From: Escherichia coli | Lineage (GTDB): Bacteria; Pseudomonadota; Gammaproteobacteria; Enterobacterales; Enterobacteriaceae | Strand: one strand, 5' to 3' | Assembly (NCBI RefSeq): GCF_041248615.1 | Contig: NZ_CP158425.1 | DNA: 64,000 nt | Part shown: one piece after another, positions 1-64,000 of the stretch | Numbering within the stretch: the first letter of the stretch is position 1 | How the letters are laid out: each line of letters begins with the position of its first letter | Program-made: the position numbers and the translations under genes | Notes under the pieces: generated by a model | Told to the model about the DNA's origin: nothing | What the model saw: the letters and a program-made list of their open reading frames with translations, nothing else | Database searches by the model: none

Positions 1-551
1 CACACTCAGCCATTAACAACCCTATGATTAACCTTCTGGCGCAGGGTCGTGCAGCGAAAATTGCACTGTTTATTTGCACCCAAACCATCTCCGACTTTAT
101 TGCTGCGGCAAGTGTTGAAACTGCCAATCGAATTACGGGGCTCTGCAACAATTATATAAGCTTGCGAGTCAACGATACTCCTACTCAGACGCTTGTTGTA
201 GAGAACTTTGGTAAGAGTGCGATAAGCACAAATATGGTCACTTATACGACCGGTTCAGAAACATCTTTGCCGCATAATAACTTCTCAGGTTCAATCTCAG
301 AAAGAAAGCAGACAACTTTAGAAGAGAGTATTCCAAAGGATCTCTTGGGTCAGGTCCCTATGTTTCACATAGTTGCCAGGCTTCAAGATGGCAGGAAGGT
401 TGTAGGCCAAATCCCTATTGCTGTTGCTGAGAAACAAATGAAGCCAAACACAACTCTGTCGGAAATGCTTTTCAAGAAGGCCGGAAAAGTTACTTTGCGT
501 CAAAATCTCGATATCAAAAATCTTAATAAATTTCTAAGGAAGTTGCATTGA
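1..551 (+). CDS. Type IV coupling protein (TraD/VirD4-like), C-terminal part; ORF open at the left window edge
   Basis: The frame has no stop from nt 3 to the TGA at 549-551. The sequence LLAQGRAAKIALFICTQTISDF resembles the conserved core end of conjugative coupling ATPases. Overlapping co-directional genes follow. Confidence 0.5.
   Translation, partial: HSAINNPMINLLAQGRAAKIALFICTQTISDFIAAASVETANRITGLCNNYISLRVNDTPTQTLVVENFGKSAISTNMVTYTTGSETSLPHNNFSGSISERKQTTLEESIPKDLLGQVPMFHIVARLQDGRKVVGQIPIAVAEKQMKPNTTLSEMLFKKAGKVTLRQNLDIKNLNKFLRKLH
484..498. promoter_or_regulatory. Palindromic operator-like site GAAAAGTWACTTTTC, copy 0 (inside the coupling-protein ORF)
   Basis: GAAAAGTTACTTTGC. Confidence 0.45.
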
Positions 552-1660
552 TGGATGAAAAAATTGTCCTGACGCGCCAGCAAATTTTAAGCTCTGCACT
601 AAAAGTCAGCAAATGTCGCTCGCTCGTAAAAAGGCGCTTTCAGTCTTTGGGTTTAAAGTACGCAGATTCTCAGGAAGTTCGAGATCGGCTAACTAAGATA
701 GAAAAAAACGCGTTTCATCATTTGGGAAAATTTTGTCAGAGCAACGATATCGATTCCCTATTCTCCATGGCAAATACCCTGTCTGAGCTTTTCCTTTTAA
801 AGGGAGAGTTGATCACGACTGATCCCTTTGGGGACCGTGAAACCAGCTACTGGTCGGTACCACAAGGTTCATGCCATGAATGGATTCAATCGCTGACCAC
901 CAGCGAAGGTCCTGAACGTAAATTCGTTAGTTTCCGTATTTCTTTCGATAACAATGACGAACGGTGTGATCTTGTAAAGAAGAATGCCCGTATGCTTGGT
1001 TGTTATCTTTTGCCTTATTTCGTCGATTTGACACGCACGGTGGGCGCATTCATTAATTTGCCAGGTAGTGTCTCTTTTAAACAAGTACAGCGCATCAAAC
1101 CCCAGATTCATCCAGAAACAACACATAGTCATATAGTTACTATTGAGGACTCTCCCTTTCTTTCTCGGTTAAAATTTAAAATCATTACTGCCATAGATCG
1201 GCTTCCTGACCCTAATGGCCTTTATACAAACACCTTTAACAGCATTATTGACCGTGCACTGCTGACTCATCTCAAAACCGAACAGGAAAAAATAGATAGT
1301 CCAAGAGTCTGCAAAAATGTGATTTCGGCTTTTGCCGACTCAACTCTTTCTCTGCCGGTGTTTAACATCGGCCTAAACGAGCAGTACAGATACTGGACGC
1401 CGTGGGGCATCAACTTTATAGAATTTTCCCGCCAGGCCGCAAAAGCAAGGACCGCTGTATTTGTTCCTGATGTGGGACAGATCGAGTGGAAAAGCGCAGA
1501 GCATAAAGAACTGGCGGAGTTAAGCCTCATCGACCAAATCATACCTAAACAGTACCACTGGCTCCTGGGTATCCCGACGATGTGGCGTAACAACTATTGC
1601 AATCACGATCAGAGGCTAGCTCTTTTTCGTGAATGGAGGGAAAGCAATGGCTGCGGATAA
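551..1660 (+). CDS. Hypothetical protein, transfer-region associated
   Basis: ATG at 551 overlaps the upstream TGA (TGATG). 369-aa ORF with no motif I recognise. Confidence 0.55.
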   Translation: MDEKIVLTRQQILSSALKVSKCRSLVKRRFQSLGLKYADSQEVRDRLTKIEKNAFHHLGKFCQSNDIDSLFSMANTLSELFLLKGELITTDPFGDRETSYWSVPQGSCHEWIQSLTTSEGPERKFVSFRISFDNNDERCDLVKKNARMLGCYLLPYFVDLTRTVGAFINLPGSVSFKQVQRIKPQIHPETTHSHIVTIEDSPFLSRLKFKIITAIDRLPDPNGLYTNTFNSIIDRALLTHLKTEQEKIDSPRVCKNVISAFADSTLSLPVFNIGLNEQYRYWTPWGINFIEFSRQAAKARTAVFVPDVGQIEWKSAEHKELAELSLIDQIIPKQYHWLLGIPTMWRNNYCNHDQRLALFREWRESNGCG

Positions 1661-2309
1661 TACAAGCAGAGCAGCAGTGCTCAGAACAATGCTTTTTTTT
1701 GGCATGGTCATTTATTTTGGTTACAGCCTGGCTTTCCAGAATACTGAGGAGCTCAAATATCAGATTACTCAGGAGGTTAATGCAAGCCGGTCCATCATAT
1801 CAAATGACCGTTGGAAGTCTGTTATTGCAAATAGTGAAGCGACTTTAAATTGGTTGGTACATGACTATAAGTTAATTGACTATCTGAATACTATTCTGAT
1901 CCCTGACACCAAAAAACCAGCCAGAGGTATTAACATTGTTGCTGAAAAATTTACCTCTATTAATTACACTATGGCCAAAAACATACCCCTCTTACTTTAT
2001 CAGTCCATTTTCCGGTGGAACTTAATCCTGGGGTGGCTAATCGTTTTTCTGCCCTATCTATTTGCCATGCTAGCAGATGGAATGTACCAGTGGAAATTGA
2101 AGAGGTACGTATTTGGTAAGGTTACAGTTCAGTTTTATCGTATTTGGTTTCGAGCATTTTGGGTGATCAGTGCTTTAACGATGGTCTACCTGGTCATGCC
2201 GAATATGTCACTATTTAACAATATCGCTCAACTTTTCCCACCAGTCGCTTTATTGATACTGGGAATTGCATTGAATCGCTTGTGGTCTAACTTTCAAAAA
2301 CTCATGTAA
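1647..2309 (+). CDS. Integral membrane protein (ICE/plasmid transfer-region type)
   Basis: GGAGGG lies 6 nt before the ATG at 1647, which overlaps the upstream gene. Several hydrophobic helices are present (MLFFGMVIYFGYSLAF, LILGWLIVFLPYLFAML, FWVISALTMVYLVM, LFPPVALLILGIAL). Confidence 0.55.
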   Translation: MAADNTSRAAVLRTMLFFGMVIYFGYSLAFQNTEELKYQITQEVNASRSIISNDRWKSVIANSEATLNWLVHDYKLIDYLNTILIPDTKKPARGINIVAEKFTSINYTMAKNIPLLLYQSIFRWNLILGWLIVFLPYLFAMLADGMYQWKLKRYVFGKVTVQFYRIWFRAFWVISALTMVYLVMPNMSLFNNIAQLFPPVALLILGIALNRLWSNFQKLM

Positions 2310-2319
2310 AGGTGGTCAG

Positions 2320-3501
2320 ATGTTAAGCAGTAAAAAAAGGAAGTCCCCTACAAATATCAAAGAATCGCTCAATGATAACGCTGACCGTTTTTATAAGATG
2401 TTTCGCATTCATACCACGGCAAAAGTTGCTATGTCGCTAATTGCCATGACCGCTGTAGGGTTTTCTTTCTACAATCTTTACGAACAATGGCAGGACGCTG
2501 AAGGGAAGAAAGACCATATAGCTGTAATACGGATTTCTGGCGAGATGGGTACCGGCTCGGAAACGGGCGATGGAACAGTGATCGCAACAGCTCTTGCCAA
2601 AGCTTACAATAATCCCCATGCCAAAGCAGTTATTATCGAGGCAGAGTCAGGTGGTGGTGGTCCCTCTGACGCCATCATTATTTACCGCCAGATAAACGCG
2701 CTTAAAAACCACCAGCCACAGATTGAACGCGTATCAGATGCCGGTTGCTCTCTTTCATCTGTAGCCGCTGACAAGAGTAACAAAACCGGGAGCACAGAAC
2801 GTGGCGATGAAGCACGGTCGAAGCAAAACTCCCTCGAAGTACTCTCCAGCGGTACCGGTCGTTTTTTCTCTGATATCGCAGACTCATATAAACCAATCAT
2901 CGTTAGTGTGAAAGGCATATGCGCATCCGCATGCTATTACGCGGTATCGCCCGCTGATGCAATTTATGCCGACAGTAATGCCCTGATCGGTTCTATCGGT
3001 GTGCGTATGGACCACTGGAATCTGTCAGAGATCATGAGCACAGTAGGCGTCAAGAATGAGCCCCTTACGGCCGGTGAGTTCAAAGATGCTCTTGACCCCT
3101 TCCACCCATTGTCCGATTCAACGAGGGAGTTCATGCAGAAGGAGATCCTGAACACGATGCATGAAAAATTTATAACTGATGTTGAACTTGGACGGGGTAA
3201 AAAGCTTCTCTCGCGTCATGATGCCGATGCTGTTTCTCTCTATTCAGGCCGTGTATGGCCAACACCTCAGGCAGTTAAGTACGGCCTGGTGGATGGAGAT
3301 CTTACGTCAGTAGAGATCCGTACACGTCTTTCAAAAATGTACTCCACTGACACGTTCAAAAACTACAATGAGCCTCATCGTAATCTCCGTTCTGCACTCG
3401 GCATGCTGATGAGCCTGTCTTCAAATATTGAGAGCCTTACCGGTACCACTACCCGCTTGGTAGAATCTGTTAATGCCACCAGCTACCCCTCTGTGAGGTA
3501 A
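2320..3501 (+). CDS. S49 family (SppA-like) serine peptidase with N-terminal membrane anchor
   Basis: The KGICASACYYAVSPADAIYADSNALIGSIGV block matches the SppA/ClpP-fold serine motif region. An N-terminal TM segment is present. A low-complexity insert lies between the two conserved halves. Confidence 0.6.
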   Translation: MLSSKKRKSPTNIKESLNDNADRFYKMFRIHTTAKVAMSLIAMTAVGFSFYNLYEQWQDAEGKKDHIAVIRISGEMGTGSETGDGTVIATALAKAYNNPHAKAVIIEAESGGGGPSDAIIIYRQINALKNHQPQIERVSDAGCSLSSVAADKSNKTGSTERGDEARSKQNSLEVLSSGTGRFFSDIADSYKPIIVSVKGICASACYYAVSPADAIYADSNALIGSIGVRMDHWNLSEIMSTVGVKNEPLTAGEFKDALDPFHPLSDSTREFMQKEILNTMHEKFITDVELGRGKKLLSRHDADAVSLYSGRVWPTPQAVKYGLVDGDLTSVEIRTRLSKMYSTDTFKNYNEPHRNLRSALGMLMSLSSNIESLTGTTTRLVESVNATSYPSVR

Positions 3502-3502
3502 C

Positions 3503-9161: not shown

Positions 9162-10346
9162 TCATGACTGTCCCTTGTTCATCTTATCAGCATGCTTACG
9201 CAGGTACTCTTTCAGGTCAGCATGAGCGTTGATGATATCGTTCATTTCATCATTGGTCAGAACAAGCGTGTAAGTATCAGTACTGACAGATTCACCTTCT
9301 TTAAGCTTGGCTTCTTCAGCAATACGTTCAAAAATCGGGATCGCGGTGTCTGCAATGACGGTCACAGTCTTTTTGTTCAGAACGCTGGACATGGAAGGTG
9401 CTTTACCTGCCGGGTTCTGTTTAGGAGCGCTGTCCTTTGGAGCTGGAGCCGGTTCCTGTACCGGTGGCGTATCCAGCGTCTCCGTATTGCTTTCATCGTT
9501 CAGTTGATCCGGTACCGGGGTGTTATCGGTAGTATCATCTGCCGGTTGCTCAGCACCGATGTTTTCCGGAGTCTGCGGATCTGCCATGCGCTCTTCTACC
9601 TTGGCAGCTTTGACGAATTTCAGCGTGTTTTTCGTCGCCTTGCCATAGATGGAGATCGCTTTGTTGATGTTATCTACCGCATCCTCACCGCTGTACATAT
9701 ACTCGTCCAGTGCAACGTACATGCTCACCTGATCGCTCACAAGCATGGTCTGTAGTTCAGAAGGCAGGTCCAGTACGCGAACCATCTGGCGAAGATGCTG
9801 CTCTGATTTACCACGTTTTTTTGCCAGTTCCGCAAAGGTCTTAGGCTCTTCTTTATCTTCAACCAGACGCTTAATTGAAAGCGCTTCAGCTACGACAGAC
9901 AGCGCCAGGTTGGAGTTGCCGGTCAGGGTGAAGAGTTCTGCTTTTGAAGCGCTACCGCGAAACTCTTCGCAGCGAATACGAGTAATGCGTTCACGCCCTT
10001 CTGCTTCCAGCTGGCGGTTTGCAATAGCGATGGAACGGATACGGCAAGCCCCCTGACGCAGTACAGGTACGCCATTAACCATCTGAACAACGATAGGCGT
10101 CACGCTGAACGGGTCTTCCATGTAGGCATCGGCCAGGCTGTTCAGGTGTTCCACAACGTGAGGCATTGAATAGTAGAGCTCGCCCATACCGGCCGTGCGG
10201 GTGTTAAAGCCTTCCTGCTCTACAACAACCGAAGGGTCAATGATAAGGCCGTTGCCTTTACGGGCACCGTTACCAGTGCGTTCCAGGTAACCACGAAGGC
10301 TGATTTCGTTGCTGTTGTTTTTTACTTCAGTTTCGATTGCGGACAT
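9162..10346 (-). CDS. ParB N-terminal domain (ParB/KorB-like) protein, paralog 1
   Basis: EGFNTR and VLRQGACR motifs are spaced as in the ParB/sulfiredoxin-fold N-domain. The C-terminal linker is acidic and Pro-rich. Palindromic operator copies lie at 10435-10449 and 10561-10575 upstream. Confidence 0.6.
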   Translation of the reverse strand: MSAIETEVKNNSNEISLRGYLERTGNGARKGNGLIIDPSVVVEQEGFNTRTAGMGELYYSMPHVVEHLNSLADAYMEDPFSVTPIVVQMVNGVPVLRQGACRIRSIAIANRQLEAEGRERITRIRCEEFRGSASKAELFTLTGNSNLALSVVAEALSIKRLVEDKEEPKTFAELAKKRGKSEQHLRQMVRVLDLPSELQTMLVSDQVSMYVALDEYMYSGEDAVDNINKAISIYGKATKNTLKFVKAAKVEERMADPQTPENIGAEQPADDTTDNTPVPDQLNDESNTETLDTPPVQEPAPAPKDSAPKQNPAGKAPSMSSVLNKKTVTVIADTAIPIFERIAEEAKLKEGESVSTDTYTLVLTNDEMNDIINAHADLKEYLRKHADKMNKGQS

Positions 10347-14168: not shown

Positions 14169-14327
14169 CTACTTACCGGATTCGTAGGCCAGGATAGCAA
14201 ATACCTCCCTTGTTCCGTCTTTCATCCGCAACTCGCAAAGCGAGTTTCGTGTGAGCCAGGTGAATATCAACAGCGTTAAACAAACTATTAATATGCACAA
14301 AACAATGGGTTGGTTCGGCATTTTCAT
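14169..14327 (-). CDS. hok: Hok/Gef family type I toxin (52 aa)
   Basis: [52 protein letters not shown] is near-collinear with R1 Hok (..[42 protein letters not shown]). Confidence 0.9.
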
Positions 14328-14340
14328 GGCCTTCTTCTCC

Positions 14341-14440
14341 TTGCATTTAAGCAGGCAAGAGGCTACGCTGTGTGTGACTAGCATACAGGGGCCTCGGGTT
14401 AATTGAAAAATTACTCGGGGCTTTCTGCTTTTACCACAGT
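14341..14440 (+). ncRNA. sok: Probable Sok-like antisense RNA region (boundaries approximate)
   Basis: Antisense to the hok leader. TTGCAT (14341-14346), a 17-nt spacer and TACGCT (14364-14369) form a promoter-like pair. Placement is by analogy with hok/sok loci; the 3' end was not resolved. Confidence 0.35.
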
Positions 14441-14488
14441 CAAACAGTGTTACCGCTGGCTGGGGCAAAAGCCTCCAGCACCAGCGTC

Positions 14489-46225: not shown

Positions 46226-46276
46226 TCGTACGTTTCCAGCGATGCTTTCAAAAGACAATGCATACTCGTTGATTAC

Positions 46277-48112: not shown

Positions 48113-48187
48113 GTGAAAGAGCGGGCTGGGACTAACGAAAATCGAAGAAGTAATTTAGCACCCGGAGCCTAAACCGCCGGGTTAACT

Positions 48188-49276
48188 TTAGCTGGCGTTG
48201 CTGTTCTTTTTCTGGCTTCGAAGACTACGAATATAGCGCAGTTCTTCAGCGGTTAAATCATGGACGGTAAGAACATCATCGCCGTCAATCGGGTCAGCTG
48301 GTGGGCATAACTCACCTTCTAAAACAGAAGACCCTGAGTTCTCTTCTTCATCTTCAACCACTTCTAAAGGAGGCTGAGTATTGTTCAAATTCAGATCGGG
48401 ATCCCGCTTATGAATCTGGAAGTATACTTTTCCGTCTTTCTTAATTTCGGTGTACTTGAGGTATCCTATCGATGCCAACTCTTCAAGAGCCTTTCTCACG
48501 GTAGCATTCTGACTATTTGCTCGTGTTTTGAGGTTCAGACGATTTTTCAGCCGAGTAAGGGATATCGGTATAGGATTTGGCGGTAATGACTCTATGAACG
48601 TATAGAGAGCCTGGGCGCTTTCCTTCTTGGCCAACTCCTTAATTGCCTTCAGCTGCATCAAAACCTTATGATCGTATTGATAGAGCTCGAAAATCTTAGG
48701 ATCAACCTGAAGGACAACCTGATCTGATTCCGGGTCTAACAGGGCAGACTGTACCAGATGCGTTGTATAGACTTTGGACGAGTTATTACTGGTGAACGAC
48801 AAGGTAACGGATGCTAACCTGCGTAAGGAGGCGTCTATACGTTTTCTGGACGCTGTAGATGAGCGATAATTTTCAGGCGTACATAGCTTGAGGAATTCAG
48901 TGAATTTTAAGCTTATCGTGTCATTGTTAATCGGATGATTGGCATAGGTTCGAATGATGCCCATCCACGTCTTAAAATCTACTGACATATTAAGACGCTC
49001 ACCGACAATTGAAATATTGGTGAACCCCTCGCTCTCCATTAAAGAGAGCGTCTGTAACTCTTTCGTTGCGTCAAAGCCAACCGTTTTATATTCCCGATTT
49101 TGACGCCCCACACTCTTTGGTGATGGGACGAACAGCCCGAGCCGCATCAAAGCAATAGACTGCACCGTACGGTTGCTGTTAGGACGCAAAATGATGTCTT
49201 TACCTGATTCTTTCTCTCTAACAGAGAAAGCCCTGGTGACCAGGTCCTGCTGCTCAGTATCTTTCTCTTTAGTCAT
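48188..49276 (-). CDS. repA: Replication initiator RepA, P1/RepFIB type, with an acidic C-terminal extension
   Basis: [28 protein letters not shown] and [31 protein letters not shown] align with the P1 RepA blocks [28 protein letters not shown] and [31 protein letters not shown] (from memory). Iterons flank the gene on both sides. Confidence 0.85.
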   Translation of the reverse strand: [362 protein letters not shown]

Positions 49277-49339
49277 AATTAGTTATCACTGAATGTGTAA
49301 ACAGATTGGTGAATAGTAAGCCCCAGCGAACTCTATGTC

Positions 49340-49490
49340 ACTGGATGGATCATTGTGATGATCCATATCTGTGCATAAGTTCTACCTAAAAAAACGACTC
49401 CACTCATTAAAACTTGGCAAAAACTCTTTGCATACAATGACCTGCAACTCTTATCAACAACGGATCAGATCAAGTTAAAAAGATCTAATG
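49340..49490. promoter_or_regulatory. GATC-rich repA promoter/origin-proximal region
   Basis: GATC at 49348, 49360, 49463, 49468 and 49482. Palindrome GGATCAT-TGTG-ATGATCC at 49347-49364. AT-rich. Confidence 0.5.
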
Positions 49491-49495
49491 AAAAG

Positions 49496-49593
49496 TCACT
49501 ACTATTGTCGCTCTGATCACTACTGATGTCAAAAAACTCATTACCAACGTTATAATAATCACTACTAATGTCAAAATAATCACTACTGTTGTC
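49496..49593. repeat. Origin iteron set 1: five direct repeats at exact 21-bp spacing
   Basis: TCACTACTATTGTC (49496), TCACTACTGATGTC (49517), TCATTACCAACGTT (49538), TCACTACTAATGTC (49559), TCACTACTGTTGTC (49580). Confidence 0.85.
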
Positions 49594-49796
49594 ACTGATC
49601 ACGTCTCAGGCCTTGTGCCGTCTGGCCTGGAGGCAGCGGGGATCTCTTTTGATCTATCAGGAACACTAAGGTACTAATTATTGGAACTACCTTGTGGAAA
49701 ATGGGGATAAATAAATGCTTAGTTCTTATACAGGTCTCAACTTGCCTCCCTGATAAAAACTGTCGTCAAAGCTAAATCACAGCCACAGGCATTTTC

Positions 49797-49805
49797 GGTG
49801 GATAA
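49797..49805. promoter_or_regulatory. DnaA-box-like sequence
   Basis: GGTGGATAA is the reverse complement of TTATCCACC, an 8/9 match to TTATCCACA. It lies between the two iteron sets. Confidence 0.3.
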
Positions 49806-49918
49806 ATTTTTGAGAAATAGAAGCATACATGCAGACTCGTGTCGCAAGTAATTGAAAGTAATGATTTATTTAAATAATGCGAGTCACCTTACCTCACAGT
49901 GGAAGTTTAAGTCTAACC

Positions 49919-50017
49919 TCACTACCATTGTCACTTAAAATCATTACCAACGTCGAAATAGTCTCTACCATTGTCTTTTAAGTCACTCCCGTTGTCACTT
50001 ATGTCGCTACTGTTGTC
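49919..50017. repeat. Origin iteron set 2: five direct repeats at 21-22-bp spacing
   Basis: TCACTACCATTGTC (49919), TCATTACCAACGTC (49941), TCTCTACCATTGTC (49962), TCACTCCCGTTGTC (49983), TCGCTACTGTTGTC (50004). Confidence 0.85.
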
Positions 50018-50245
50018 AGTGACAATGCTCCAGCCCAGTAACCATGCGGCCTACAGCGTACCGGGATCTTCTTTGTACTCTCTGGCACCTTTGGGATCAT
50101 TTATTGGATCTACATGAGGGATAAAATCTTTTGACGATTTCGTAGTGCAGTTATACCAGCGACTTAGCAAGACAAAAGCTGCAATTTAGTGACGAGTTAC
50201 TAGTCTGCCCAACAAGAGCAATGCAGAGAAGATATGTGGTGAAAT

Positions 50246-50279
50246 GACCATGGTAGTGAGTCTAATCACTACCATGGTC
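50246..50279. repeat. Isolated inverted iteron pair
   Basis: GACCATGGTAGTGA (50246-50259), 6 nt, then TCACTACCATGGTC (50266-50279). Confidence 0.8.
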
Positions 50280-50383
50280 CGCAGTAAGCGTTACTTACGC
50301 AATGAACGTCGGACTGATTTGCAACAACATGGGCTACGGCGCATCAGAAGGCGGCCGTTGTGCTTCAGCAAAACAGCCCTGCT

Positions 50384-52840
50384 TTATTTTAATTCTTCAA
50401 TGTTAATCATGAACTCAGATCTGCCAGTAAGGCCGGATACAGCAGGGAAAATAGGAAAGCTACGGCTGTCCCCGAGCCCCAAATCCAGTTGAAGCTCTTT
50501 GCTTTCACCTGGCATCGCAGAAACGCCATTTACAGTCACGCCGAATGCAGCGTCCTTACGGACAGTAAGCACTGCGTCCTGAAGCCCTGTAGCGATTGAA
50601 CCATCCTTTTTACGCAGCTGGCTGGCATACAGAACAGCCAGAGCAGTATTGTCAGATGTTTTGAGAGAAGCATTGACAGCTAAGGTTTTCAGATTCTCTA
50701 GCCTGACGAGATTGTTTGGAAGGTAGTTAAATTCGACTGAGCTTTCTTTAACGTTGTTCATCTCATCTTTGGCCTGAACTGTGAGAGTGTATGTTTCGCC
50801 TTCATTAAGAGACGGAAAGATCTTGGGATAATTAGGTGCATACAGGTTGTTTCCCAGATTCACCCAAGACAATTCCACCGCATCAGAAACAGGGCCACCG
50901 CGAAGAGTCATACGGCTTAAGGATGGTTTAGTTAGAGCATCGGTGAGCTGTATACGGACGTTCTCCAGCCCATATACTGTTACGTTTTTGCTGATCGGTT
51001 TTCCTTCGTAGCTAATACTTACAGATGGTGCTGTATTATCAACGACAACTGTTTGATAAGGGAGGTTACCGGTATTGTTGAATGTATCTTGGGCATTAAT
51101 CACCACGTTATAACTGCCTTCTGGTACCTCTTTCATGTTGAACTCATACGTGTAGTTCCCAGACGCCATATTTCTACCTGTTTGTTTGCCGGTTACGCTT
51201 ATTTCTGCGTTGTTACGGTTTTTATCTGACAACCAAACTCGATTTACATAAACATGGTCGAAATATGAACCATCTCCAGGTTGATTCACGTAAACCTGGA
51301 GAATGTTGGTGGTTTCATTGTAATCAAATCCAGTGACGGAGGGACCCAGTGTATGCCAGGCTATATTCTCCCATATAGGGGCAAAGAAGGTTGCTTCGGT
51401 GGTTGACCTTACTTCATAGCCACTATGAAGATAACCGGTAGTGCCATTTATAATATCCTGGGGCAAAGAGACGGTACAGGTTGTTGAGCCAGCTGGAATA
51501 CTGCATGTTGCTCCGCCAGTGATTTTTTGATCATATGGCCTGGCCTGTACATTGAATCGGATATTAGTAAGTTTTATAGGCATATCAGATGCCTTGAACA
51601 GGTTCCAGTTTACGCTGTTGAACCATGTTCCATCAGCCTTTTGTCGTTCTATGGGTGAACTTCCCCAAGCCGGACTCTTTACAGAGGCAGGATCCCAGTT
51701 GAGCCAGCTGGCATACTGACCAAGATCTCCTCCAGACCATTGATATGTATTCACAGGTCTATAGTAGTTTCCATCTAAGGCACCCTGTGGCAGCTTAACT
51801 TCCACGTAGACATAGGTGGCATCTTCGGAAAGGACCTGTACTCCGCCATAGTTATTGGTAATGCTCATGCCACCATTTCGATATGGCTTCCAGTTAGTTC
51901 TTGGGATACGTATAACCAACTTGTAGGGGTTTTCCAGCACTGTAAGGCCTCGTTTAAACGGGACGTATCCCGAAGAAATGCCGGGTACAACACTGGTGCT
52001 TACACGTGAGTCATGAACTGCAAATGGCGTAAATTCTCCCATTTGATCGTCATATAAAAACCGCTGGGGAGGAATGTTAAGCGTATTTCCTGCCAGGTCC
52101 GTAACGATGAAATTGAAGGTGAATTCTTCATCAAGATCACTTGAGGGCATGCCAGCCTGGGTGTTCATATCTTTAATCCACGGATAGAACGCACGTTTAT
52201 TGGCTGTGTCATAACTCAGGTTATTGTCGGAGACCACAGAACCATTACTTCGTTTAATGACAAGACGGATCTTGTCAATTCCACTAGCATCCTCAATACC
52301 GTCTGCAAATATAGAAAACTGGCCACTACCGCCTCGGCCCAACTCCCAAAGTGGCCCAGAAAGTACCATGTCGTAACCTGCGTTTTGACTCGGATAAATA
52401 CTCTTATAGCGTGGAGGAGTTGTATCAACGATGAAATGATAAGTAGATGTGCTCACTACAGTCTGGCGAATATCCAGAGTTTCATTGACTACAGTAAAGG
52501 TCCCTTCTCCGAGCGCCGGTAGAACCATATCCTTTCCATAGTATTCTGTTCCATCGGCAGCAACGATACGATCTGCAACGCTCGTTTTGGTCGAGACGGA
52601 GGAATACATAACCTTTTTATCGCTGTCTCGTGTGACCGTCACTCGCTCGTACCGATCAAGACCCGATATCAAGTTCAGAGTCAAAACACCAGCGGGATTA
52701 AGATATGTTTGTGTTGCAGGTTTGATATTCCGAACAGCCTTATTGGTATCTGTAAATGAGTAGCTAAATACCTGAGCATGTGCCGAAGATACAGTAGCAA
52801 GGGCAGTTGCAACCATGCAGCCAATTAGAGTTTTACGCAT
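50384..52840 (-). CDS. Secreted large beta-rich (Ig-like repeat?) protein, paralog C
   Basis: GGAG RBS. Signal peptide MRKTLIGCMVATALATVSSAHA. C-terminus SEFMINIEELK against SEFMIQIDELK in paralog B. Confidence 0.7.
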   Translation of the reverse strand: MRKTLIGCMVATALATVSSAHAQVFSYSFTDTNKAVRNIKPATQTYLNPAGVLTLNLISGLDRYERVTVTRDSDKKVMYSSVSTKTSVADRIVAADGTEYYGKDMVLPALGEGTFTVVNETLDIRQTVVSTSTYHFIVDTTPPRYKSIYPSQNAGYDMVLSGPLWELGRGGSGQFSIFADGIEDASGIDKIRLVIKRSNGSVVSDNNLSYDTANKRAFYPWIKDMNTQAGMPSSDLDEEFTFNFIVTDLAGNTLNIPPQRFLYDDQMGEFTPFAVHDSRVSTSVVPGISSGYVPFKRGLTVLENPYKLVIRIPRTNWKPYRNGGMSITNNYGGVQVLSEDATYVYVEVKLPQGALDGNYYRPVNTYQWSGGDLGQYASWLNWDPASVKSPAWGSSPIERQKADGTWFNSVNWNLFKASDMPIKLTNIRFNVQARPYDQKITGGATCSIPAGSTTCTVSLPQDIINGTTGYLHSGYEVRSTTEATFFAPIWENIAWHTLGPSVTGFDYNETTNILQVYVNQPGDGSYFDHVYVNRVWLSDKNRNNAEISVTGKQTGRNMASGNYTYEFNMKEVPEGSYNVVINAQDTFNNTGNLPYQTVVVDNTAPSVSISYEGKPISKNVTVYGLENVRIQLTDALTKPSLSRMTLRGGPVSDAVELSWVNLGNNLYAPNYPKIFPSLNEGETYTLTVQAKDEMNNVKESSVEFNYLPNNLVRLENLKTLAVNASLKTSDNTALAVLYASQLRKKDGSIATGLQDAVLTVRKDAAFGVTVNGVSAMPGESKELQLDLGLGDSRSFPIFPAVSGLTGRSEFMINIEELK

Positions 52841-53839: not shown

Positions 53840-53844
53840 AAAAT

Positions 53845-54668: not shown

Positions 54669-54845
54669 TTAATAGAATTCTTCATAACCGGGGTTTTCAG
54701 TTGAGTTTGCGGACTCTTTACTTTGCGGTTTCTCACCCTCTAGTTGAGTATCCCTGACAGGCTTGGATTTACCCATGCTCCTCTGAAAGGTATCCATAAC
54801 AAACTCAATATCTTCTTCTGGCAGGCTGGTGGGTTGGTTGCTCAT
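54669..54845 (-). CDS. Small hypothetical protein (58 aa, below the track cutoff)
   Basis: ATGA overlap with the stop of the methyltransferase gene (54842-54845). Reads MSNQPTSLPEEDIEFVMDTF...NPGYEEFY*. Confidence 0.35.
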   Translation of the reverse strand: MSNQPTSLPEEDIEFVMDTFQRSMGKSKPVRDTQLEGEKPQSKESANSTENPGYEEFY

Positions 54846-55967
54846 AGGACTTCCTCTTGTTGAATACGTTCGGCGTACAGGATGCGAACCGAAACGGTCG
54901 TGTTTTCAAACTCGTTCTCAAAAACGTCCATCCATTCCGTCCGGAATTCTTCCCCCAAAAGGTTATCGAGCCCCTGAAGAGATAATGGAAGAACGGCTGC
55001 TAGAGATCCCCCGGCTGCGAGATGAGATGCAGCTGCCTGGAGATGCCGCCTGGCCCGGTTATCGGCAAAAGGTGGGTTCATCACGACATAATCAAACTTC
55101 TTCTGTTGATTAGACTTAGACCATGTGAGGAAGTCAGCTTCTGTCGTATCGTATCCCTTAGCCCGGGAGATAAGGCAATTCAAAGTATCAAGCTCGATGC
55201 CAGTAACGATCACACCGGCAGGGAATGATTTAAGCAAATCCGCATGGCCAATATTAGGCTCCAGGAGGGTATCCCCTTCCCCTGCACCAAGCAGGGAAGA
55301 TACATATTCGCTGATTCGGCAAGATGAAGGGTAAAACTGATGCGATACAATATCAGGCATCTCCCCTATCTGGCCGATGTAACGAATAACCTCACACGGA
55401 TCATAGGAAAATGTCACATCGTATTTTGTTACTGTTGCCCCTAAGAACCGAAGGGTGTCAGCGGCAACACTCGAAGATTTGCGTTCGGCGAGAGACCCTA
55501 AAGATGTCCAGCAACTCCATTTATTGTCCCCGTCATTTTTAAACATCAGTTCAGAAAGCTGCATCCGGGTATCAAAGTCGATGCACTGCTTAAGTACAGG
55601 GAATGCCTCCAAAGATTTCTTGCTATGAGCCATACGGTCGGCAGGTAATGCCAGCGGTACGATAGCTGATAAAATATTGTTAAGCCGCTCGGCGATATCA
55701 GGGTGGACGTCAATATGCATTGATCCATTTTTGTAAACCCTGAAACGAATACTGTTGCCATCGATGCAGATCCATTTTCTGAACCCCTCATGTTCGACCA
55801 ACGCCTCAACCAATGATTTGGTGTTATGGATCGCCTTCACCTGTTCGCCACGGAAGAATGCGCATATAACGCGGAGCTCGCTCAGCGGTGAAATGCCAGA
55901 CTCTTTAAAATCCTGAACCGCCCCGGGAATCCTGGAGACTAAACTTCCTGAGAAAGAGGTAAACAGG

Positions 55968-56294
55968 ATGACTAAAAATACTCGTTTTTCCCCCGAAGTC
56001 CGTCAACGGGCAGTCCGTATGGTTCTGGAAAGTCAGGATGAATATGACTCACAGTGGGCGGCAATTTGTTCCATTGCCCCAAAGATTGGCTGTACGCCGG
56101 AGACTCTGCGTGTCTGGGTTCGCCAGCATGAGCGGGATACCGGGGGCGGTGATGGTGGGCTCACCAGCGCTGAACGTCAGCGTCTGAAAGAGCTGGAACG
56201 TGAAAATCGTGAACTGCGCCGCAGTAACGATATCCTTCGCCAGGCTTCCGCTTATTTTGCGAAGGCGGAGTTCGACCGCCTCTGGAAAAAATGA
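55968..56294 (+). CDS. IS3-family transposase OrfA
   Basis: 108 aa; differs from copy 1 at a few residues ([18 protein letters not shown]). Confidence 0.9.
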
Positions 56295-57181
56295 TGCCAC
56301 TGCTGGATAAGCTGCGTGAGCAGTACGGGGTCGGACCGGTATGCAGCGAACTGCATATTGCCCCGTCAACGTATTACCATTGTCAGCAACAGCGACATCA
56401 TCCGGATAAACGCAGTGCCCGTGCGCAGCACGATGACTGGCTGAAGAGAGAGATACAGCGCGTATACGATGAAAATCATCAGGTGTACGGTGTGCGTAAA
56501 GTCTGGCGTCAGTTGTTACGGGAAGGAATCAGGGTGGCCAGATGTACAGTGGCGCGCCTCATGGCGGTTATGGGACTTGCCGGTGTTCTCCGGGGTAAAA
56601 AGGTCCGTACGACCATCAGCCGGAAAGCCGTTGCCGCAGGCGACCGCGTAAACCGTCAGTTCGTGGCAGAACGACCTGACCAGCTGTGGGTGGCTGATTT
56701 TACTTACGTCAGCACATGGCGGGGCTTCGTCTATGTGGCGTTCATCATTGATGTGTTTGCCGGATACATCGTGGGGTGGCGGGTCTCATCGTCCATGGAA
56801 ACGACATTCGTGCTGGATGCACTGGAGCAGGCGTTATGGGCCCGTCGACCGTCCGGCACGGTCCATCACAGTGATAAAGGTTCTCAGTATGTATCGCTGG
56901 CCTACACACAGCGGCTTAAGGAAGCCGGATTACTGGCATCAACAGGAAGTACAGGCGACTCGTATGACAACGCGATGGCGGAGAGCATCAATGGTCTTTA
57001 CAAAGCGGAGGTAATACACCGTAAGAGCTGGAAAAACCGTGCAGAAGTGGAACTGGCCACACTCACGTGGGTGGACTGGTATAACAATCGACGATTGCTG
57101 GAAAGGCTGGGCCATACTCCTCCGGCAGAAGCAGAAAAAGCTTATTATGCTTCCATCGGAAACGATGATCTGGCAGCCTGA
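56291..57181 (+). CDS. IS3-family transposase OrfB
   Basis: 296 aa, near-identical to copy 1 OrfB. Confidence 0.9.
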
Positions 57182-57900
57182 GTTCACAGATAAAACACTC
57201 TCCAGGAAACCCGGGGCGGTTCAATCCACCCTTAATTTCTGCCAGGGGTATTTAGACGGCTCGCAAACTCCGGTAGTGATCATGCGGGTGGAGAACCCAA
57301 AAGCTTTGTTTGTCTTGTGACTGCGGCTCAGAGACTGGAAGACGTCGTAAACCCTTTCTTTAATAAATTGATTGCGGTCATTAAGCAAAGCAACGACTGT
57401 GCCCACTACAGCGTCAGCTGTGAAATCAGGGATCACCTGAGGCGGCATAATATAACGGTCGGCCGTAAACTGCTTATCCCATTCGTTACGTTTGGCATCC
57501 GACATGATAGGCAAAACATCAGTGAGTGCCATAACGCGTTTCCAGTATTCTGATCTCAGAGCGTTTTCTGCGAACAAGGCATCCGCTTCTGAGATGCTGT
57601 GGTTGTAGCCTGAGAGATAAGAATAAAGTTTCTGGTGATTGTGGGTTTTGAACTGGACAGCCATGAGTTTCAACAAGCAGAGTTCATCATTATAGGACTC
57701 AACAAGATCCGCGATAATGCCGAGCTCTTTGCGCATATCTGGAAGAAATGTTTCAGGAGAGCTAACCACCAGGCTATGAGAGGTTGTTAAAGCCAGTACG
57801 CTGTGACCTGCATTATCGGGTTTAGCTTCAGAATCAAGAGATGACATTTTACCGGTCCTTTAGAAAAAACTTTTACCAGGATAGCAACGTCGCTCAGTAA

Positions 57901-58094: not shown

Positions 58095-59258
58095 TTATTC
58101 TGCGTCCGGCTGTGGGTCAGTATCCTGATCGGTCTCTTCCCCTGCCTTCTTAGCATTTTTTTTACGTGGGTATTTTGGCTTCTCACCATTAAGTTTTGCC
58201 TGACGATTCTCCGCACGGCGAAGCTGCTTGTTCTCTGATTCTGTGATCTCTTTTGAAAGATTTCTCAACATCTCCAGAGTACTGCGGTTCAACGTAATGT
58301 TGATTTCTTCGTCAGCACTTGAATCTGTCAGCTCCGGCAATTCAATATCCCCCAGTTTCTGTAATAAGCTGGTGGTGATGAGTTTGACGCCTTCTACGGC
58401 TTTTGTGGCAATAACCGGCGGAATCCGTGCTGGCTTGAAGTCTGAAGGTCTGACTCGTACCTGACCATGTTGGGTTTTTTTCACCGTGATGCCATTCGCA
58501 TCGGCCTGCTCAAGTTCTGCGATCATCTTCTTGATACGTGAAATTGCTTCTGTTTCGCCGAGCTCATCGATCAGTGAAAGCACGTTAACATACGAAATAG
58601 CGTCAGCATGAATCCATTTCTTGATAACAACAGAACAGGTTGTCAGGCGGATAAGAGAACTGATGGTCGTCGGGCTTTTATTTTCACGTTGAGCAATTCG
58701 TTCGAGTGACCAGCCAGCAAGAGAATGTAGGCGACGATAGGACTCGCCAAGCGCAACAGGAGAAAGCGCAAGACCACGGTTACCATCAATGGTCGCGAGC
58801 TCACAGCCAATTTCATCTTCTTTAATCTCAACGCAAAGGATTGTGATGTCATGATCTTCATCACATGCCATCATTGCGGCTTTTAAACGGCAGTGCCCCT
58901 GGCGAACAAAAGGTACCCCATCAATGACACGTACTCGGATAGGGTCTACATAGTCACCTCGAATGTAGGCATTCTTGATGTTGTAGATGTGTTCTTCAAC
59001 CTCAGGGAGCTTATAGTAATCGTCACCCATTCCCATTTCGCGGGAGTTGAAGCCTGGCGTGACCTGAATTACTGAAGGGTGGATAGCCCATGCTTTCTGG
59101 TCACTTACTTCAGTACAAAGTTCAGGGTTTGCATCACGGAACTGTTTAAGCCCAGTGACGTAACGGCCTGTGCCAGTAACTACTGAAAAGGCAACATGGG
59201 CCGTTTTAAAGACCTTGTCATTAGCTTGCTGTGTAGGTTCTGTCAGTAAAACACTCAT
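58095..59258 (-). CDS. ParB N-terminal domain (ParB/KorB-like) protein, paralog 2
   Basis: PGFNSREMGMGDDYY and FVRQGHCRLKAAMMA are collinear with paralog 1 (EGFNTRTAGMGELYY, VLRQGACRIRSIAIA). ACGGAG RBS. Confidence 0.6.
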   Translation of the reverse strand: MSVLLTEPTQQANDKVFKTAHVAFSVVTGTGRYVTGLKQFRDANPELCTEVSDQKAWAIHPSVIQVTPGFNSREMGMGDDYYKLPEVEEHIYNIKNAYIRGDYVDPIRVRVIDGVPFVRQGHCRLKAAMMACDEDHDITILCVEIKEDEIGCELATIDGNRGLALSPVALGESYRRLHSLAGWSLERIAQRENKSPTTISSLIRLTTCSVVIKKWIHADAISYVNVLSLIDELGETEAISRIKKMIAELEQADANGITVKKTQHGQVRVRPSDFKPARIPPVIATKAVEGVKLITTSLLQKLGDIELPELTDSSADEEINITLNRSTLEMLRNLSKEITESENKQLRRAENRQAKLNGEKPKYPRKKNAKKAGEETDQDTDPQPDAE

Positions 59259-59547: not shown

Positions 59548-59627
59548 TAAAGCCCGTGGTTAGGTACGATACCAGCACCTAAATTTCTCTCTCAGGTATA
59601 GACACTTTGACTCGACATCTCAGACAC

Positions 59628-60440
59628 ATGCCGATAATCAAATGGGCTGGTGGAAAAACGAAACTGATGCCTTTCATCAGCCATCACTACCCACACGATC
59701 ATAGTTGCCGGTGGGTAGAACCCTTTATAGGCGGTGGTGCCGTTTTTCTGAACATGTTTGCACAAAATGCATTGCTTGCAGATAGCAATCCAGACTTGAT
59801 CAACCTATACAGGACTATTCAAAGACAGAAAACTAACTTTATAAATCAGGTCCAAAACTTGGCGGATAAAACCTTTGTCGAAAAGGACTACTATGAGATG
59901 AGGGACCGTTTCAACAAAACCTGTATTTCTGGTCAATCGCTTCAAAGAGCGGCTTTGTTTTACTCCCTGAATCGCCTGGGCTATAACGGTATGTGCCGCT
60001 ATAACTCAGAAAGAATCTATTCAGTGCCGTGGGGGAAACATACAGAACTGAAGCTTGACCTCAATAAAATAGACTACCTTTCATTTCGTCTTTCAGGTAT
60101 TGAACTGATCACCGCTGGTTTTGAGGAGACTCTGGCCGCAACCGGTGAAGGAGATCAGATTTACTGTGATCCGCCATATGACAAAACAAGCAAAACTAGT
60201 TTTGTCAGTTACGATGGTAAACCGTTCAGCCAAAGCGACCACGTGCTGTTAGCAAATATGCTCGTTGACGCTCACAGAAAAGGCGCTGCTGTTGCGATAT
60301 CAAATAGCCTGACATCATTCACTTTGGGCCTCTATGAAGAGCGTGGATTCGTCATACACAGACTCAGCGCTTACCGATCCGTAGGAAGTAAGCCGAATAC
60401 ACGGAAAACGGAAACAGAAATACTGGCCGTGCTGAAATAG
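59628..60440 (+). CDS. dam: Dam-family (D12 class) DNA adenine methyltransferase
   Basis: IKWAGGKTKL...VEPFIGGGAVFLN...YNGMCRYN...IYCDPPY is collinear with E. coli Dam (LKWAGGK...VEPFVGAGSVFLN...YNGLCRYN...VYCDPPY). The track ORF starts at TTG 59607; the ATG is at 59628. Confidence 0.85.
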   Translation: MPIIKWAGGKTKLMPFISHHYPHDHSCRWVEPFIGGGAVFLNMFAQNALLADSNPDLINLYRTIQRQKTNFINQVQNLADKTFVEKDYYEMRDRFNKTCISGQSLQRAALFYSLNRLGYNGMCRYNSERIYSVPWGKHTELKLDLNKIDYLSFRLSGIELITAGFEETLAATGEGDQIYCDPPYDKTSKTSFVSYDGKPFSQSDHVLLANMLVDAHRKGAAVAISNSLTSFTLGLYEERGFVIHRLSAYRSVGSKPNTRKTETEILAVLK

Positions 60441-62468: not shown

Positions 62469-63524
62469 TTAATATTCCTTAAGGAGATCTCGAATTTCCA
62501 GAAGCTCTTCTAATTTTGGTTTAGAAACAATGATTGCTGTATTTTCGTCGTTAAGTAAAGACAATAAAATATTTAGCTTTTCATCATTCAAGATTATTTG
62601 AACACCATCATTGGAAAATATTACATTATTACTATTAACATTTTTGAACAAGTGTGCACTATCTCTACCAAATTTTAGTTCTGTTTGAGTATTCGTTATA
62701 GATTCCGTATGTGTACTTTCCACAAGCTCAAGAAATTCAGATTTTAGCCGTTCTGTTTTCTTATGCGAGAGGCGCTTAATACCCAAAGTCTTACGAGTGA
62801 CTGCCGAATTTTTCTTTTCTGGTCCGCCTTTATTTAAGGTGTCTGGTCCTGCTCCAGCTGCATTGTGTTCAGGTATGCCTACAATTTTGCTCGTTGTAGT
62901 CTCAATATTCTTAACGCCAGGTAAGAAACCTTCTATATGTTTTAAAACCATTTTGTGATCGTTGGAATATTTTAACATTATTTCAATGGCGAGCGTTTTT
63001 TTGATTAGATTTAGGCTAATCAAACGTTGAAGCTCTAATGGCATATCAAGGATTTTTAGCATATTACGAATTGCGGTAGTTGATCGTTGATATCGCATTG
63101 CTAGTTCTTCAACCGAATACCCGAGACTAACAGCATGAGCTAATGCATGAGCTTGCCCAACCGGATTTAGCCCATTGCTTCTGTTACCATCGAGGTTCTC
63201 AAGGTATTCTTCAATTTCGTTTTTATAATCGATTAGGATAACAGATAATTTTGGAATATTAGCACCTTCAGAAATTGCTAATTTTAAGCCATGAAAACGA
63301 GTATGACCTTGACGAACTAAATATTTACCTTTTCTTTTTACGACCTTGATCATATCAACCTGCCTTCCTTCCTTAAAGGCTTGTTTGATTGACACAATCA
63401 TCGACTTGACAGGTTCTTGTTCGTAACACAAATCTCCGATTACCGCCTCTCGGGGATTAAATCCCTTTTCAATTTCAACTAGATTAGTATCCACTTCAAT
63501 GACTGTATGTTTGCTGTTGTTCAT
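62469..63524 (-). CDS. ParB N-terminal domain (ParB/KorB-like) protein, paralog 3
   Basis: KGFNPREAVIGDLCY and LVRQGHTRFHGLKLA motifs. GGAGG RBS. AT-rich codon usage compared with paralogs 1 and 2. Confidence 0.6.
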   Translation of the reverse strand: MNNSKHTVIEVDTNLVEIEKGFNPREAVIGDLCYEQEPVKSMIVSIKQAFKEGRQVDMIKVVKRKGKYLVRQGHTRFHGLKLAISEGANIPKLSVILIDYKNEIEEYLENLDGNRSNGLNPVGQAHALAHAVSLGYSVEELAMRYQRSTTAIRNMLKILDMPLELQRLISLNLIKKTLAIEIMLKYSNDHKMVLKHIEGFLPGVKNIETTTSKIVGIPEHNAAGAGPDTLNKGGPEKKNSAVTRKTLGIKRLSHKKTERLKSEFLELVESTHTESITNTQTELKFGRDSAHLFKNVNSNNVIFSNDGVQIILNDEKLNILLSLLNDENTAIIVSKPKLEELLEIRDLLKEY

Positions 63525-63752
63525 ATCTTCCTCCTGTTTACTACATGATACATGAACCTCAAATTTGCCAAATAGGGCTGATACATCTAAAAGGTAAACT
63601 CAAAAAATTTGCTTAATAAAATTAAAATAAAAACTGTCTTGAATAAAACAATGATAGTAGACCCTCGTTCATTTCCGTTTGCGATCTGTAGATATTGTTA
63701 AAGGAGCGCTATTCCTTGTTTTATATGGACTTATCATTGTTTTCAACAGGAT

Positions 63753-63802
63753 AGATCAATTCTTTAGATCACTAAAGATCAATAGAGTTCAAGTAAAGAT
63801 CA
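63753..63802. repeat. Four AGATCA motifs phased at 11-12 and 21 bp
   Basis: AGATCA at 63753, 63765, 63776 and 63797. Confidence 0.5.
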
Positions 63803-63848
63803 CGGCATCTTTAACTCATTGATTATAGTGACTTTATGAAAGGATCCG

Positions 63849-63945
63849 GCATTCGGATGCATGCGAAAAGCATTTGAATGAATAAGGAAGGCATTTACTG
63901 GAATGCTTATGGCATTTAGGTTAATGCGTAAAAAGCATTTGCAAG
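63849..63945. repeat. Five direct GCATT(T/C) repeats at 21-23-bp spacing (cut by the window edge?)
   Basis: GCATTC at 63849; GCATTT at 63870, 63891, 63912 and 63935. Each is followed by a (G)AATG-like submotif. Confidence 0.55.
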
Positions 63946-64000
63946 AATATGTTATAAACAGTTTGCCAAATGAAAATCTTATCACCGACGAGTTAAGTTA

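Follow-up and report, generated by a model that had tools for sequence, protein, structure and literature searches.

Relaxases of the MOBH group are carried by IncHI1, IncHI2, IncA/C, IncT and IncP-7 plasmids and by the integrative conjugative elements (ICEs) R391/SXT, clc and PAPI-1 (PMC3394729). Within the group, the relaxases of R27 and R478 belong to clade MOBH11, those of IncA/C plasmids and R391 to clade H121, and those of the pKLC102-like ICEs to clade H2 (PMC3394729). The mating-pair formation (MPF) and mobilization (MOB) modules of IncH plasmids are of different lineages and are common to SXT, R391, Rts1, pCAR1 and IncA/C (bioRxiv 10.1101/334409), and TraG, TraI and TraJ of the H plasmids have been assigned in the literature to the MOBH group. 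MOBH11 relaxases also require a MobI-like factor (TraH in the case of R27), and their C-terminal domains are dissimilar to those found on the SXT/IncA/C side (PMC13635750). In this work, a stretch of DNA of 64,000 bp (the window, always meant at its full length) is compared with these systems. A preliminary description, made from the sequence alone, had regarded it as a mosaic of ICE-like backbone genes and an autonomous P1/RepFIB-type replicon, i.e., a plasmid that uses an ICE-type transfer system.

The window is almost certainly (probability of about 0.97) an uninterrupted part of a conjugative IncHI2 plasmid for multidrug resistance, and belongs to its conserved backbone. Its arrangement is the already known, canonical backbone of these plasmids and not a new mosaic. 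From left to right, it consists of the tail of the Tra1 DNA-processing operon (traD to the NERD gene), ~36 kb of small co-oriented backbone genes and the RepHI2 replicon bracketed by three RSP2-like proteins. To the right of the RepHI2 region, more methyltransferase and ParB-like genes follow up to the RepHIA replicon, which lies just outside the window.

Identity and typing of the plasmid

Two segments of the window, 1-25000 and 39001-64000, matched the record NZ_LT599829.1 in single pieces at 100% identity (174074-199073 and 213074-238073, respectively; megablast against a plasmid collection). The window open reading frames (ORFs) between the two searched 25-kb segments agree with the gene table of the same record. 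Judged by its sequence, the window is the final 64,000 bp of this 238,073-bp record, i.e., of plasmid p14408_M1 from Escherichia coli NRZ14408, a carrier of mcr-1. The Escherichia/Shigella-like host that had been predicted from the sequence is in agreement with the E. coli origin of the record, and the match to an IncHI2 plasmid also bears out the view that the DNA belongs to a plasmid and not to an integrated element. LT599829 has already served as comparison plasmid for a sequenced mcr-1 plasmid (PMC6978640).

In PLSDB (MOB-suite), p14408_M1 is typed as conjugative, IncHI2A plus rep_cluster_1088, MOBH and MPF_F, and the typing of the circular plasmid pSA26-MCR-1 is the same. In megablast, 760 plasmid records covered 80% or more of the first 25 kb and 425 covered the last 25 kb, with hosts in Escherichia, Salmonella, Enterobacter, Klebsiella, Citrobacter and others. 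The order of TraD, small-gene block, RepHI2, ParB-like genes, RepHIA and Tra2 is unchanged in circular relatives, e.g., pSA26-MCR-1. What had been described as a mosaic is this conserved backbone, and hundreds of plasmids, spread over several genera, show the order TraD-RepHI2-RepHIA with ~100% identity. Compared with IncHI2 plasmids (R478, pSA26-MCR-1 and p14408_M1), the sequence is identical or nearly so, and the gene order, the presence of both RepHI2 and RepHIA, MOBH, MPF_F and the split into Tra1 and Tra2 are the same. The differences between the window plasmid and other IncHI2 plasmids are of strain level only (two IS629-type insertions and the absence of IS421). The IncHI1 plasmid pHCM1 is alike in MOBH, in MPF_F and in a 794-aa Ig-like protein beside a RepB-family initiator, but its proteins show lower identity, the Ig-domain protein only 39%.

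The remaining part of the record is of the same character. The second replicon encodes RepHIA, a RepB-family initiator (record positions 1-876) and the typing target of IncHI2A; its start is located 476 bp past the third ParB-like paralogue of the window and just outside the window end, as seen in the circular pSA26-MCR-1. Tra1 of the record includes a TraG N-terminal-domain protein, trhH, mobI, the MobH relaxase and traD, and Tra2 is annotated with traL, traE, traK, htdO, trhB, htdT, trhV and traC. Further genes are parAB, parM, htdA and rsp, and then trhF, trhU, trhN and trhI. The F-type assembly genes annotated are those of TraL, TraE, the TraK secretin, TraC, a TrbC-family protein, TrhU, TrhN, TrhH and the TraG N-terminal-domain protein. 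The F-type mating-pair genes are divided between the Tra1 and Tra2 regions and accompanied by trh/htd genes, the arrangement by which IncHI2 is recognized. The record also contains mcr-1.1 flanked by two copies of ISApl1, a class 1 integron region and, at 68-85 kb, a ter cluster (terZ, terC, terD, terW, TerB- and TerD-family and TerY-type genes). A tellurite-resistance ter cluster is typical of IncHI2 (bioRxiv 10.1101/334409).

The window contains no tRNA (ARAGORN) and no site-specific integrase domain in the ~68 window proteins that were taken into the family scans (Pfam and others), as the preliminary description had also observed. The rest of the record has a single backbone tyrosine recombinase, outside the window (record positions 58585-59766). 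It is placed among plasmid genes, beside genes of a Tus-like protein and Hha, and an H-NS gene is listed after these three. A recombinase is thus encoded in the record, but no chromosomal flanks and no att/tRNA context were found for it.

Two observations weigh against the identification as a plasmid backbone. The matching record, p14408_M1, is 'linear' in PLSDB; its circular relatives have the same order. In addition, the 'chromosome' record CP169086.1 of Enterobacter hormaechei B17-3 contains a segment (3461-24120) whose DUF4400 gene is 100% identical, and which represents either an IncHI2 plasmid integrated in the chromosome or an assembly join.

The MOBH transfer module and its likeness to ICEs

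The left end of the window carries the following genes:

1..551 (+; coding 3-551), 3' end of traD (traG in R27 nomenclature), the type IV coupling protein of Tra1; Pfam TraG-D_C and TrwB_AAD_bind, annotated as traD in the record
551..1660 (+), conserved hypothetical protein of 369 aa in the Tra1 operon, overlapping the neighbouring genes
1647..2309 (+), DUF4400 membrane protein; Pfam DUF4400 48.3 bits, ~3 hydrophobic segments
2320..3501 (+), S49 (SppA-like) peptidase; Pfam Peptidase_S49 99.2 bits
3503..4234 (+), NERD-domain protein with an N-terminal membrane anchor; Pfam NERD 77.8 bits, hydrophobic residues 12-30

TraD is of the SXT type. In detail, the window fragment scored 157.9 bits and the full protein 676.8 bits with the profile TIGR03743 SXT_TraD (cut-off 366). 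The respective scores with TIGR03754 conj_TOL_TraD and the F-type TraD profile TIGR02759 were 166 bits (cut-off 647.55) and 16.7 bits (cut-off 521.35). Similarly, the relaxase reached 255.6 bits with the MobH model NF041494 (cut-off 200) and 60.7 bits with the PFGI-1-class model TIGR03760, ICE_TraI_Pfluor (cut-off 161.4).

The 369-aa protein showed no Pfam or NCBIfam match and no predicted hydrophobic or membrane segment. For the DUF4400 protein, no NCBIfam match was obtained at E 0.01, and its relatives with full-length coverage (at least 49% identity) are all DUF4400 proteins, with the genome loci found being IncHI-like. ICE-borne relatives were sought in a large protein database and by an 11-sequence alignment scan of genome contigs, and only IncHI-like ones were returned. 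Because these searches gave no chromosomal ICE context, the link to ICEs is based on the profile scores and the literature. We infer that the DUF4400 protein is the IncHI equivalent of TraJ.

More distant homologues of these proteins were located with tblastn. The DUF4400 protein is found at 82% identity in other large plasmids and at ~48% in large Klebsiella plasmids, and the S49 peptidase at 72% and 48% in large enterobacterial plasmids and at ~26% in plasmids of 87-219 kb from several genera. The plasmids with the 72% S49 and 82% DUF4400 homologues are probably IncHI1-like. Those of 87-219 kb, with S49 and Ig-domain homologues at ~26%, are probably IncC-like.

The ICE flavour of the region is best attributed to the combination of MOBH relaxase, SXT-type TraD and DUF4400 protein, a module of old shared lineage. 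The sharing of the MOBH module between IncHI, IncA/C and IncT plasmids and the SXT/R391 ICEs, and more distantly with the pKLC102/clc/PAPI-1 ICEs, is long known. The genes on which the preliminary description relied are all present according to the family scans, i.e., the coupling-protein end, its trailing membrane, S49 and NERD genes, and the DUF3085-like, ParB-like and DndC-like genes, with the DUF3085 gene being split by an insertion sequence (IS). The impression that they differ from classical F/I/P plasmids goes back to the homology of MOBH, TraD and DUF4400 with ICEs, which is real and long known. As for the plasmid with an ICE-type transfer system, ICEs do have DNA-processing genes of the same family, but the mating-pair apparatus is F-type.

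The closest likeness outside the IncH plasmids is with SXT/R391 ICEs and IncA/C plasmids (MOBH12, MPF_F), which share the TraD subfamily, the MobH relaxase, the MobI-type oriT factor and the F-type MPF (PMC3394729; PMC13635750). The clade of the relaxase is H11 in the window plasmid and H12 in SXT/R391 and IncA/C. Moreover, SXT/R391 integrate by an integrase, whereas the window plasmid has the RepHI2 and RepHIA replicons and the window is without an integrase. With the PFGI-1/pKLC102/PAPI-1/ICEclc elements (MOBH2, MPF_G), the likeness consists of a distant relation of the MOBH relaxases and the DUF4400 Pfam domain. On the contrary, the MPF is F and not G, the models of the PFGI-1-class relaxase and the TOL-type TraD are far below cut-off, and the tyrosine integrase beside a tRNA att site, a trait of PFGI-1/pKLC102/ICEclc, is not present in the window. 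The TIGR models of the accessory proteins of the PFGI-1 class (the PFL_4697 membrane protein and the ICE ParB-related protein), assumed to be in the NCBIfam library, gave no match. The transfer system is therefore not of the PFGI-1/pKLC102/ICEclc type that had been proposed: it is typed MPF_F, it has F-type genes, and the PFGI-1-class profiles fail or stay far below cut-off.

By analogy with R27, IncC and SXT, the MOBH11 relaxase and the MobI-like factor would act immediately to the left of the window, at an oriT located upstream of mobI. The DNA would then be handed by SXT-type TraD and the DUF4400 protein to the F-type (MPF_F) pilus/secretion apparatus encoded by Tra1 and Tra2. The genes of these steps were assigned by family membership and typing, and the mechanism is taken from work on R27, IncC and SXT.

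The RepHI2 replicon, the insertion sequences and alternative explanations

The replicon of the window is composed of three parts:

48188..49276 (-), repHI2, iteron-binding replication initiator; annotated as RepHI2 in the 100%-identical record
46276..48113 (no strand), iteron field 3' of repHI2, analogous to P1 incA; repeat families D1-D5, TRF period 81 with 10.3 copies, motif matches
49370..50280 (no strand), origin/promoter region upstream of repHI2, analogous to P1 oriR/incC; iterons, DnaA-box-like sites, dense GATC

RepHI2 had no match to Pfam or NCBIfam models. In tblastn against phages, it showed 41% identity to P1 RepA (74% of the query, E 3e-61) and 55% to RepA of the phage-plasmid SSU5. 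At this level of similarity RepHI2 is to be regarded as a true homologue of P1 RepA, and the label of a P1/RepFIB-type replicon was well chosen.

The 15-nt iteron core TCACTACCRTTGTCA, allowing at most three mismatches, has 54 matches in the window versus 2.7 expected (~20-fold), and 50 of them are within 46276-50280. More than 35 iterons lie downstream of rep (46276-48113) and eight, in register, upstream (49496-50018). The core of the downstream array is formed by ~11-13 tandem units of 81 bp (46786-47951), in each of which the 15-nt iteron occurs as an inverted pair. The upstream iterons are arranged in two clusters of four with 21-bp spacing (49496-49594 and 49919-50018). The upstream region also has five DnaA-box-like sites, all of them one-mismatch matches only, and between 49277 and 50383 there are 12 GATC sites in 1.1 kb versus a window mean of 3.5 per kb (~3-fold). 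The complete iteron replicon claimed by the preliminary description is present, with iteron clusters on both sides of repHI2.

Similarly to the P1 (oriR-repA-incA) and RepFIB/SSU5 replicons, to whose initiators RepHI2 shows 41-55% identity, iterons are found on both sides of rep; the DnaA-box-like sites and the clustering of GATC upstream may be a further likeness. Unlike P1, the downstream array is much larger and more regular (~11-13 x 81 bp with inverted iteron pairs), and the upstream module appears duplicated. In detail, one module seems to be present twice in 49330-50124, at a distance of ~420-750 bp (repeat families D7, D16 and D17); each copy combines four iterons at 21-bp intervals with a GATC cluster and a DnaA-box-like site. 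RepHI2 would bind the iterons, and the downstream array would limit copy number via titration and handcuffing, as P1 incA does.

An ORF of 229 aa in the iteron field (47135-47824, -) was rejected as probably not a gene. It lies wholly in the 81-bp array (81 bp being 27 codons), has no family match and is unannotated; its frame stays open because the 81-bp period is a multiple of three. A plasmid-encoded Dam-type methyltransferase (59628-60440) is found 10 kb from the GATC-rich RepHI2 origin. A methylation-dependent origin and a Dam of its own are features of P1, which the GATC-rich origin and the plasmid Dam recall.

Two IS copies interrupt genes of the window:

18125..19434 (+), IS3-family element of the IS629/IS1203 type, copy 1; Pfam HTH_Tnp_1 and rve, ALIL pseudoknot, 3-bp TCC duplication
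55914..57223 (+), element of the IS629/IS1203 type, copy 2; ALIL pseudoknot, 4-bp ATCC duplication
17968..19772 (-), DUF3085 gene split by copy 1 (3' part 17968-18124, 5' part 19438-19772); in silico restoration
54842..57847 (-), gene of a 563-aa DUF4942 and N6-methyltransferase protein split by copy 2 (3' part 54842-55913, 5' part 57228-57847); restored ORF

The copies are of 1310 bp each, with 98.3% identity between them and terminal inverted repeats that start TGAACCGCCCCGGG. Their ends and target duplications (3-4 bp) were read from the sequence, and ALIL is the frameshift pseudoknot (Rfam). Both insertions adjoin the same ATCC target sequence. Sibling plasmid records name the family IS1203, which we take to be an isoform of IS629. 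Matches to the element occur in 4263 of 5426 complete E. coli genomes. In pSA26-MCR-1, copy 1 is absent, the order is unchanged and an intact DUF3085 gene is annotated at the site. IS421 is found near hok in relatives such as pSA26-MCR-1 and is absent from the window plasmid.

The DUF3085 fragment at 19395-19772 scored 21.8 bits over the first 39 profile positions only. Removal in silico of the IS and of one copy of the target duplication gave a 163-aa protein with a DUF3085 score of 39.4 bits (cut-off 25). The restored ORF of 563 aa matches DUF4942 (79.9 bits) together with MTS and N6_Mtase. The two IS629-type insertions are recent events of strain level, i.e., simple insertions in single genes and not junctions.

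These data allow the alternatives to be weighed. A plasmid with a captured transfer system of the PFGI-1/pKLC102/ICEclc type (MPF_G), joined to a P1/RepFIB-type replicon, draws on the occurrence of MOBH relaxases in the clc, PAPI-1 and pKLC102 ICEs (PMC3394729), on the weak similarity of the relaxase to TIGR03760 (60.7 bits) and of TraD to TIGR03754 (166 bits), and on the presence of DUF4400, DUF3085, ParB-like and DndC-like domains. Such a capture is very improbable. Both profiles are below their cut-offs (161.4 and 647.55, respectively) while MobH and SXT_TraD pass, the DUF4400 protein has no NCBIfam match, the ParB-like proteins match only generic ParB/Noc models, and the DUF4400 relatives retrieved are all IncHI-like. 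The typing of MPF and relaxase in PLSDB/MOB-suite gave MPF_F and MOBH, which is a classical plasmid MPF class and is accompanied by F-type assembly genes, in disagreement with the ICE-type system of the preliminary description. A recent, isolate-specific mosaic, i.e., a new cointegrate of an ICE-derived segment and an unrelated replicon, could have been produced by fusions mediated by the two IS629-type copies and the many other IS of the record, and the GC content along the window does vary from 36% to 52%. It deserves as little credit as the capture, with the TraD-RepHI2-RepHIA order being ~100% identical in hundreds of plasmids from several genera and the same in relatives without the IS copies. 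The IS are placed inside single genes with target duplications and do not mark junctions, and S49/DUF4400 homologues are found at 72-82% and ~48% identity in other large plasmids.

The least probable of all is a phage-plasmid similar to P1 or SSU5. RepHI2 is closest to RepA of SSU5 (55%) and P1 (41%), and the plasmid-borne Dam methyltransferase and the GATC-rich origin recall P1. However, no capsid, tail, terminase or lysis family was found among the window proteins scanned, a full conjugation system is encoded in the record, and the rep gene was the sole match in the phage search. The IncHI2 backbone remains the preferred reading of the window.

RSP2-like proteins, backbone genes and a possible leading region

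Three genes of large Ig-domain proteins bracket the RepHI2 replicon:

35746..38136 (-), RSP2-like paralogue A; Pfam DUF4165, Big_3_2 and Big_3_3
43689..46109 (+), RSP2-like paralogue B; Pfam DUF4165, Big_3_2 and Big_3_3, 41% identity to C and 29% to A
50384..52840 (-), RSP2-like paralogue C; Pfam DUF4165, Big_3_2 and Big_3_3

RSP2 of R27 has 794 aa and the same DUF4165/Big architecture, and is needed for efficient conjugation; IncHI2 plasmids have been reported to be without rsp2 (PMC8730810). For R27 Δrsp2, conjugation is reported to be lower by roughly 2 log. Paralogues A, B and C have 796, 806 and 818 aa, respectively, and 28-41% mutual identity. Paralogue A aligns over 96% of its length with the Ig-like protein (794 aa) of the IncHI1 plasmid pHCM1, at 39% identity. 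Elsewhere, Ig-domain homologues were found with tblastn at ~26% in the plasmids of 87-219 kb and at 24% in pCAR1. IncHI2 plasmids evidently carry diverged RSP2-like genes, in three copies, as far as domain architecture and identity indicate.

The other backbone genes with recognizable functions are:

9162..10346 (-), ParB-like paralogue 1; Pfam HTH_ParB, 32% identity to paralogue 2
58095..59258 (-), ParB-like paralogue 2; Pfam HTH_ParB, TIGR00180 32.5 bits, below cut-off
62469..63524 (-), ParB-like paralogue 3; Pfam HTH_ParB, TIGR00180 33.9 bits, below threshold, profile positions 3-166
14169..14483 (-), hok/sok type I toxin-antitoxin, with the Hok coding sequence at 14169-14288 and the sok RNA at 14325-14483; Rfam RF01794 81.1 bits (gathering 59), Hok annotated
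34495..34791 (-), HigB/RelE-like toxin; Pfam HigB-like_toxin 65.7 bits
23924..26308 (-), DndC-like PAPS-reductase protein of 794 aa; Pfam PAPS_reduct
29492..30742 (-), orphan N6/N4 DNA methyltransferase with Mrr_N; Pfam N6_N4_Mtase 78.5 bits and Mrr_N, PADLOC MTase_II E 1.2e-46
41474..42235 (+), orphan N6-adenine methyltransferase; Pfam N6_Mtase and MTS
59628..60440 (+), Dam-type (D12 class) adenine methyltransferase; Pfam MethyltransfD12 166.8 bits

The three ParB-like proteins have 26-32% mutual identity. NCBIfam returned only generic ParB and Noc models for them, and the sub-threshold alignments of paralogues 2 and 3 are to the N-terminal part of the ParB partition profile TIGR00180. They had been described as ParB-like proteins with a nuclease domain; the three HTH_ParB paralogues exist, but the Pfam ParB N-terminal 'nuclease' domain was not reached at E 0.01.

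The hok/sok locus, also recognized earlier, is confirmed by its Rfam score. It would kill plasmid-free segregants by the known mechanism of the hok/sok family, and HigB may act likewise. The HigB-like gene is followed, in the position expected for an antitoxin, by the gene of a 381-aa 'flavin reductase family protein' (33305-34791, -, for the two), which had no Pfam, NCBIfam or PADLOC match at the thresholds used. Weak matches to DnaJ-type CXXCXGXG zinc fingers, below the Pfam cut-off, were seen at 34841-35311 (-) and 61538-62254 (-). One of these proteins adjoins the HigB-like gene and the other sits between ParB-like paralogues. A hypothetical protein of 93 aa at 15503-15784 (-) carries in the RGI layer of PLSDB the label 'Brucella suis mprF, defensin resistance'. 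The label looks like an annotation artefact, as MprF is a much longer protein and no Pfam match was obtained.

The 794-aa protein at 23924-26308 scored 117.6 bits with TIGR03183 DndC (E 6e-34, cut-off 290.4), 129.9 bits with PRK06850 (cut-off 536) and E 4e-38 with DndC of PADLOC. Its neighbouring genes have no match to any Dnd family. A Dnd phosphorothioation system was rejected, since DndC is below the equivalog cut-off and no other dnd genes are nearby; the product is a stand-alone DndC-like PAPS-reductase protein. A PADLOC scan of ten candidates gave likeness at the level of domains only (DndC, MTase_II, the NERD of PglW and the HNH of PtuB) and no complete defence system.

Between 4521 and 40299, the minus strand carries 47 of the 51 annotated genes, which are directed toward the Tra1 operon and oriT. 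The block contains orphan DNA methyltransferases, ParB-like proteins, the DndC-like protein, HNH, DUF3085, hok/sok and HigB. Such a gene content has been reported for the leading regions of plasmids (PMC11541004). In the literature examined, leading regions are described for other MOB families and none for IncHI, and the polarity of IncHI transfer is not given; MOBH is not represented in PMC3737333 for lack of an annotated oriT. A bias due to the direction of replication was rejected as the cause of the co-orientation, since most genes use the minus strand to the left as well as to the right of the RepHI2 origin, and the cumulative GC skew does not turn there.

If the block is an early-entry region, its methyltransferases, ParB-like, DndC-like and toxin-antitoxin genes would serve anti-defence and establishment. 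It is only tentatively suggested, with the odds clearly against the two holding together, that the 4.5-40.3 kb block may be the leading/establishment region of MOBH11 plasmids and that the three RSP2-like proteins may be conjugation factors of IncHI2. This possible establishment/anti-defence region and the RSP2-like paralogues could be of modest interest to researchers of IncHI conjugation.

IncHI2 is a clinically important and well-catalogued plasmid family and a major vehicle of mcr-1, which is re-identified here. The practical value of the analysis lies in the correct label, that of an IncHI2 backbone and not of a new plasmid/ICE hybrid, and its weight as a discovery is small. It re-derives a known point of the biology of the family, namely, that the DNA-processing genes (MOBH) of IncHI2 plasmids share ancestry with those of ICEs and that their pilus genes are F-like.

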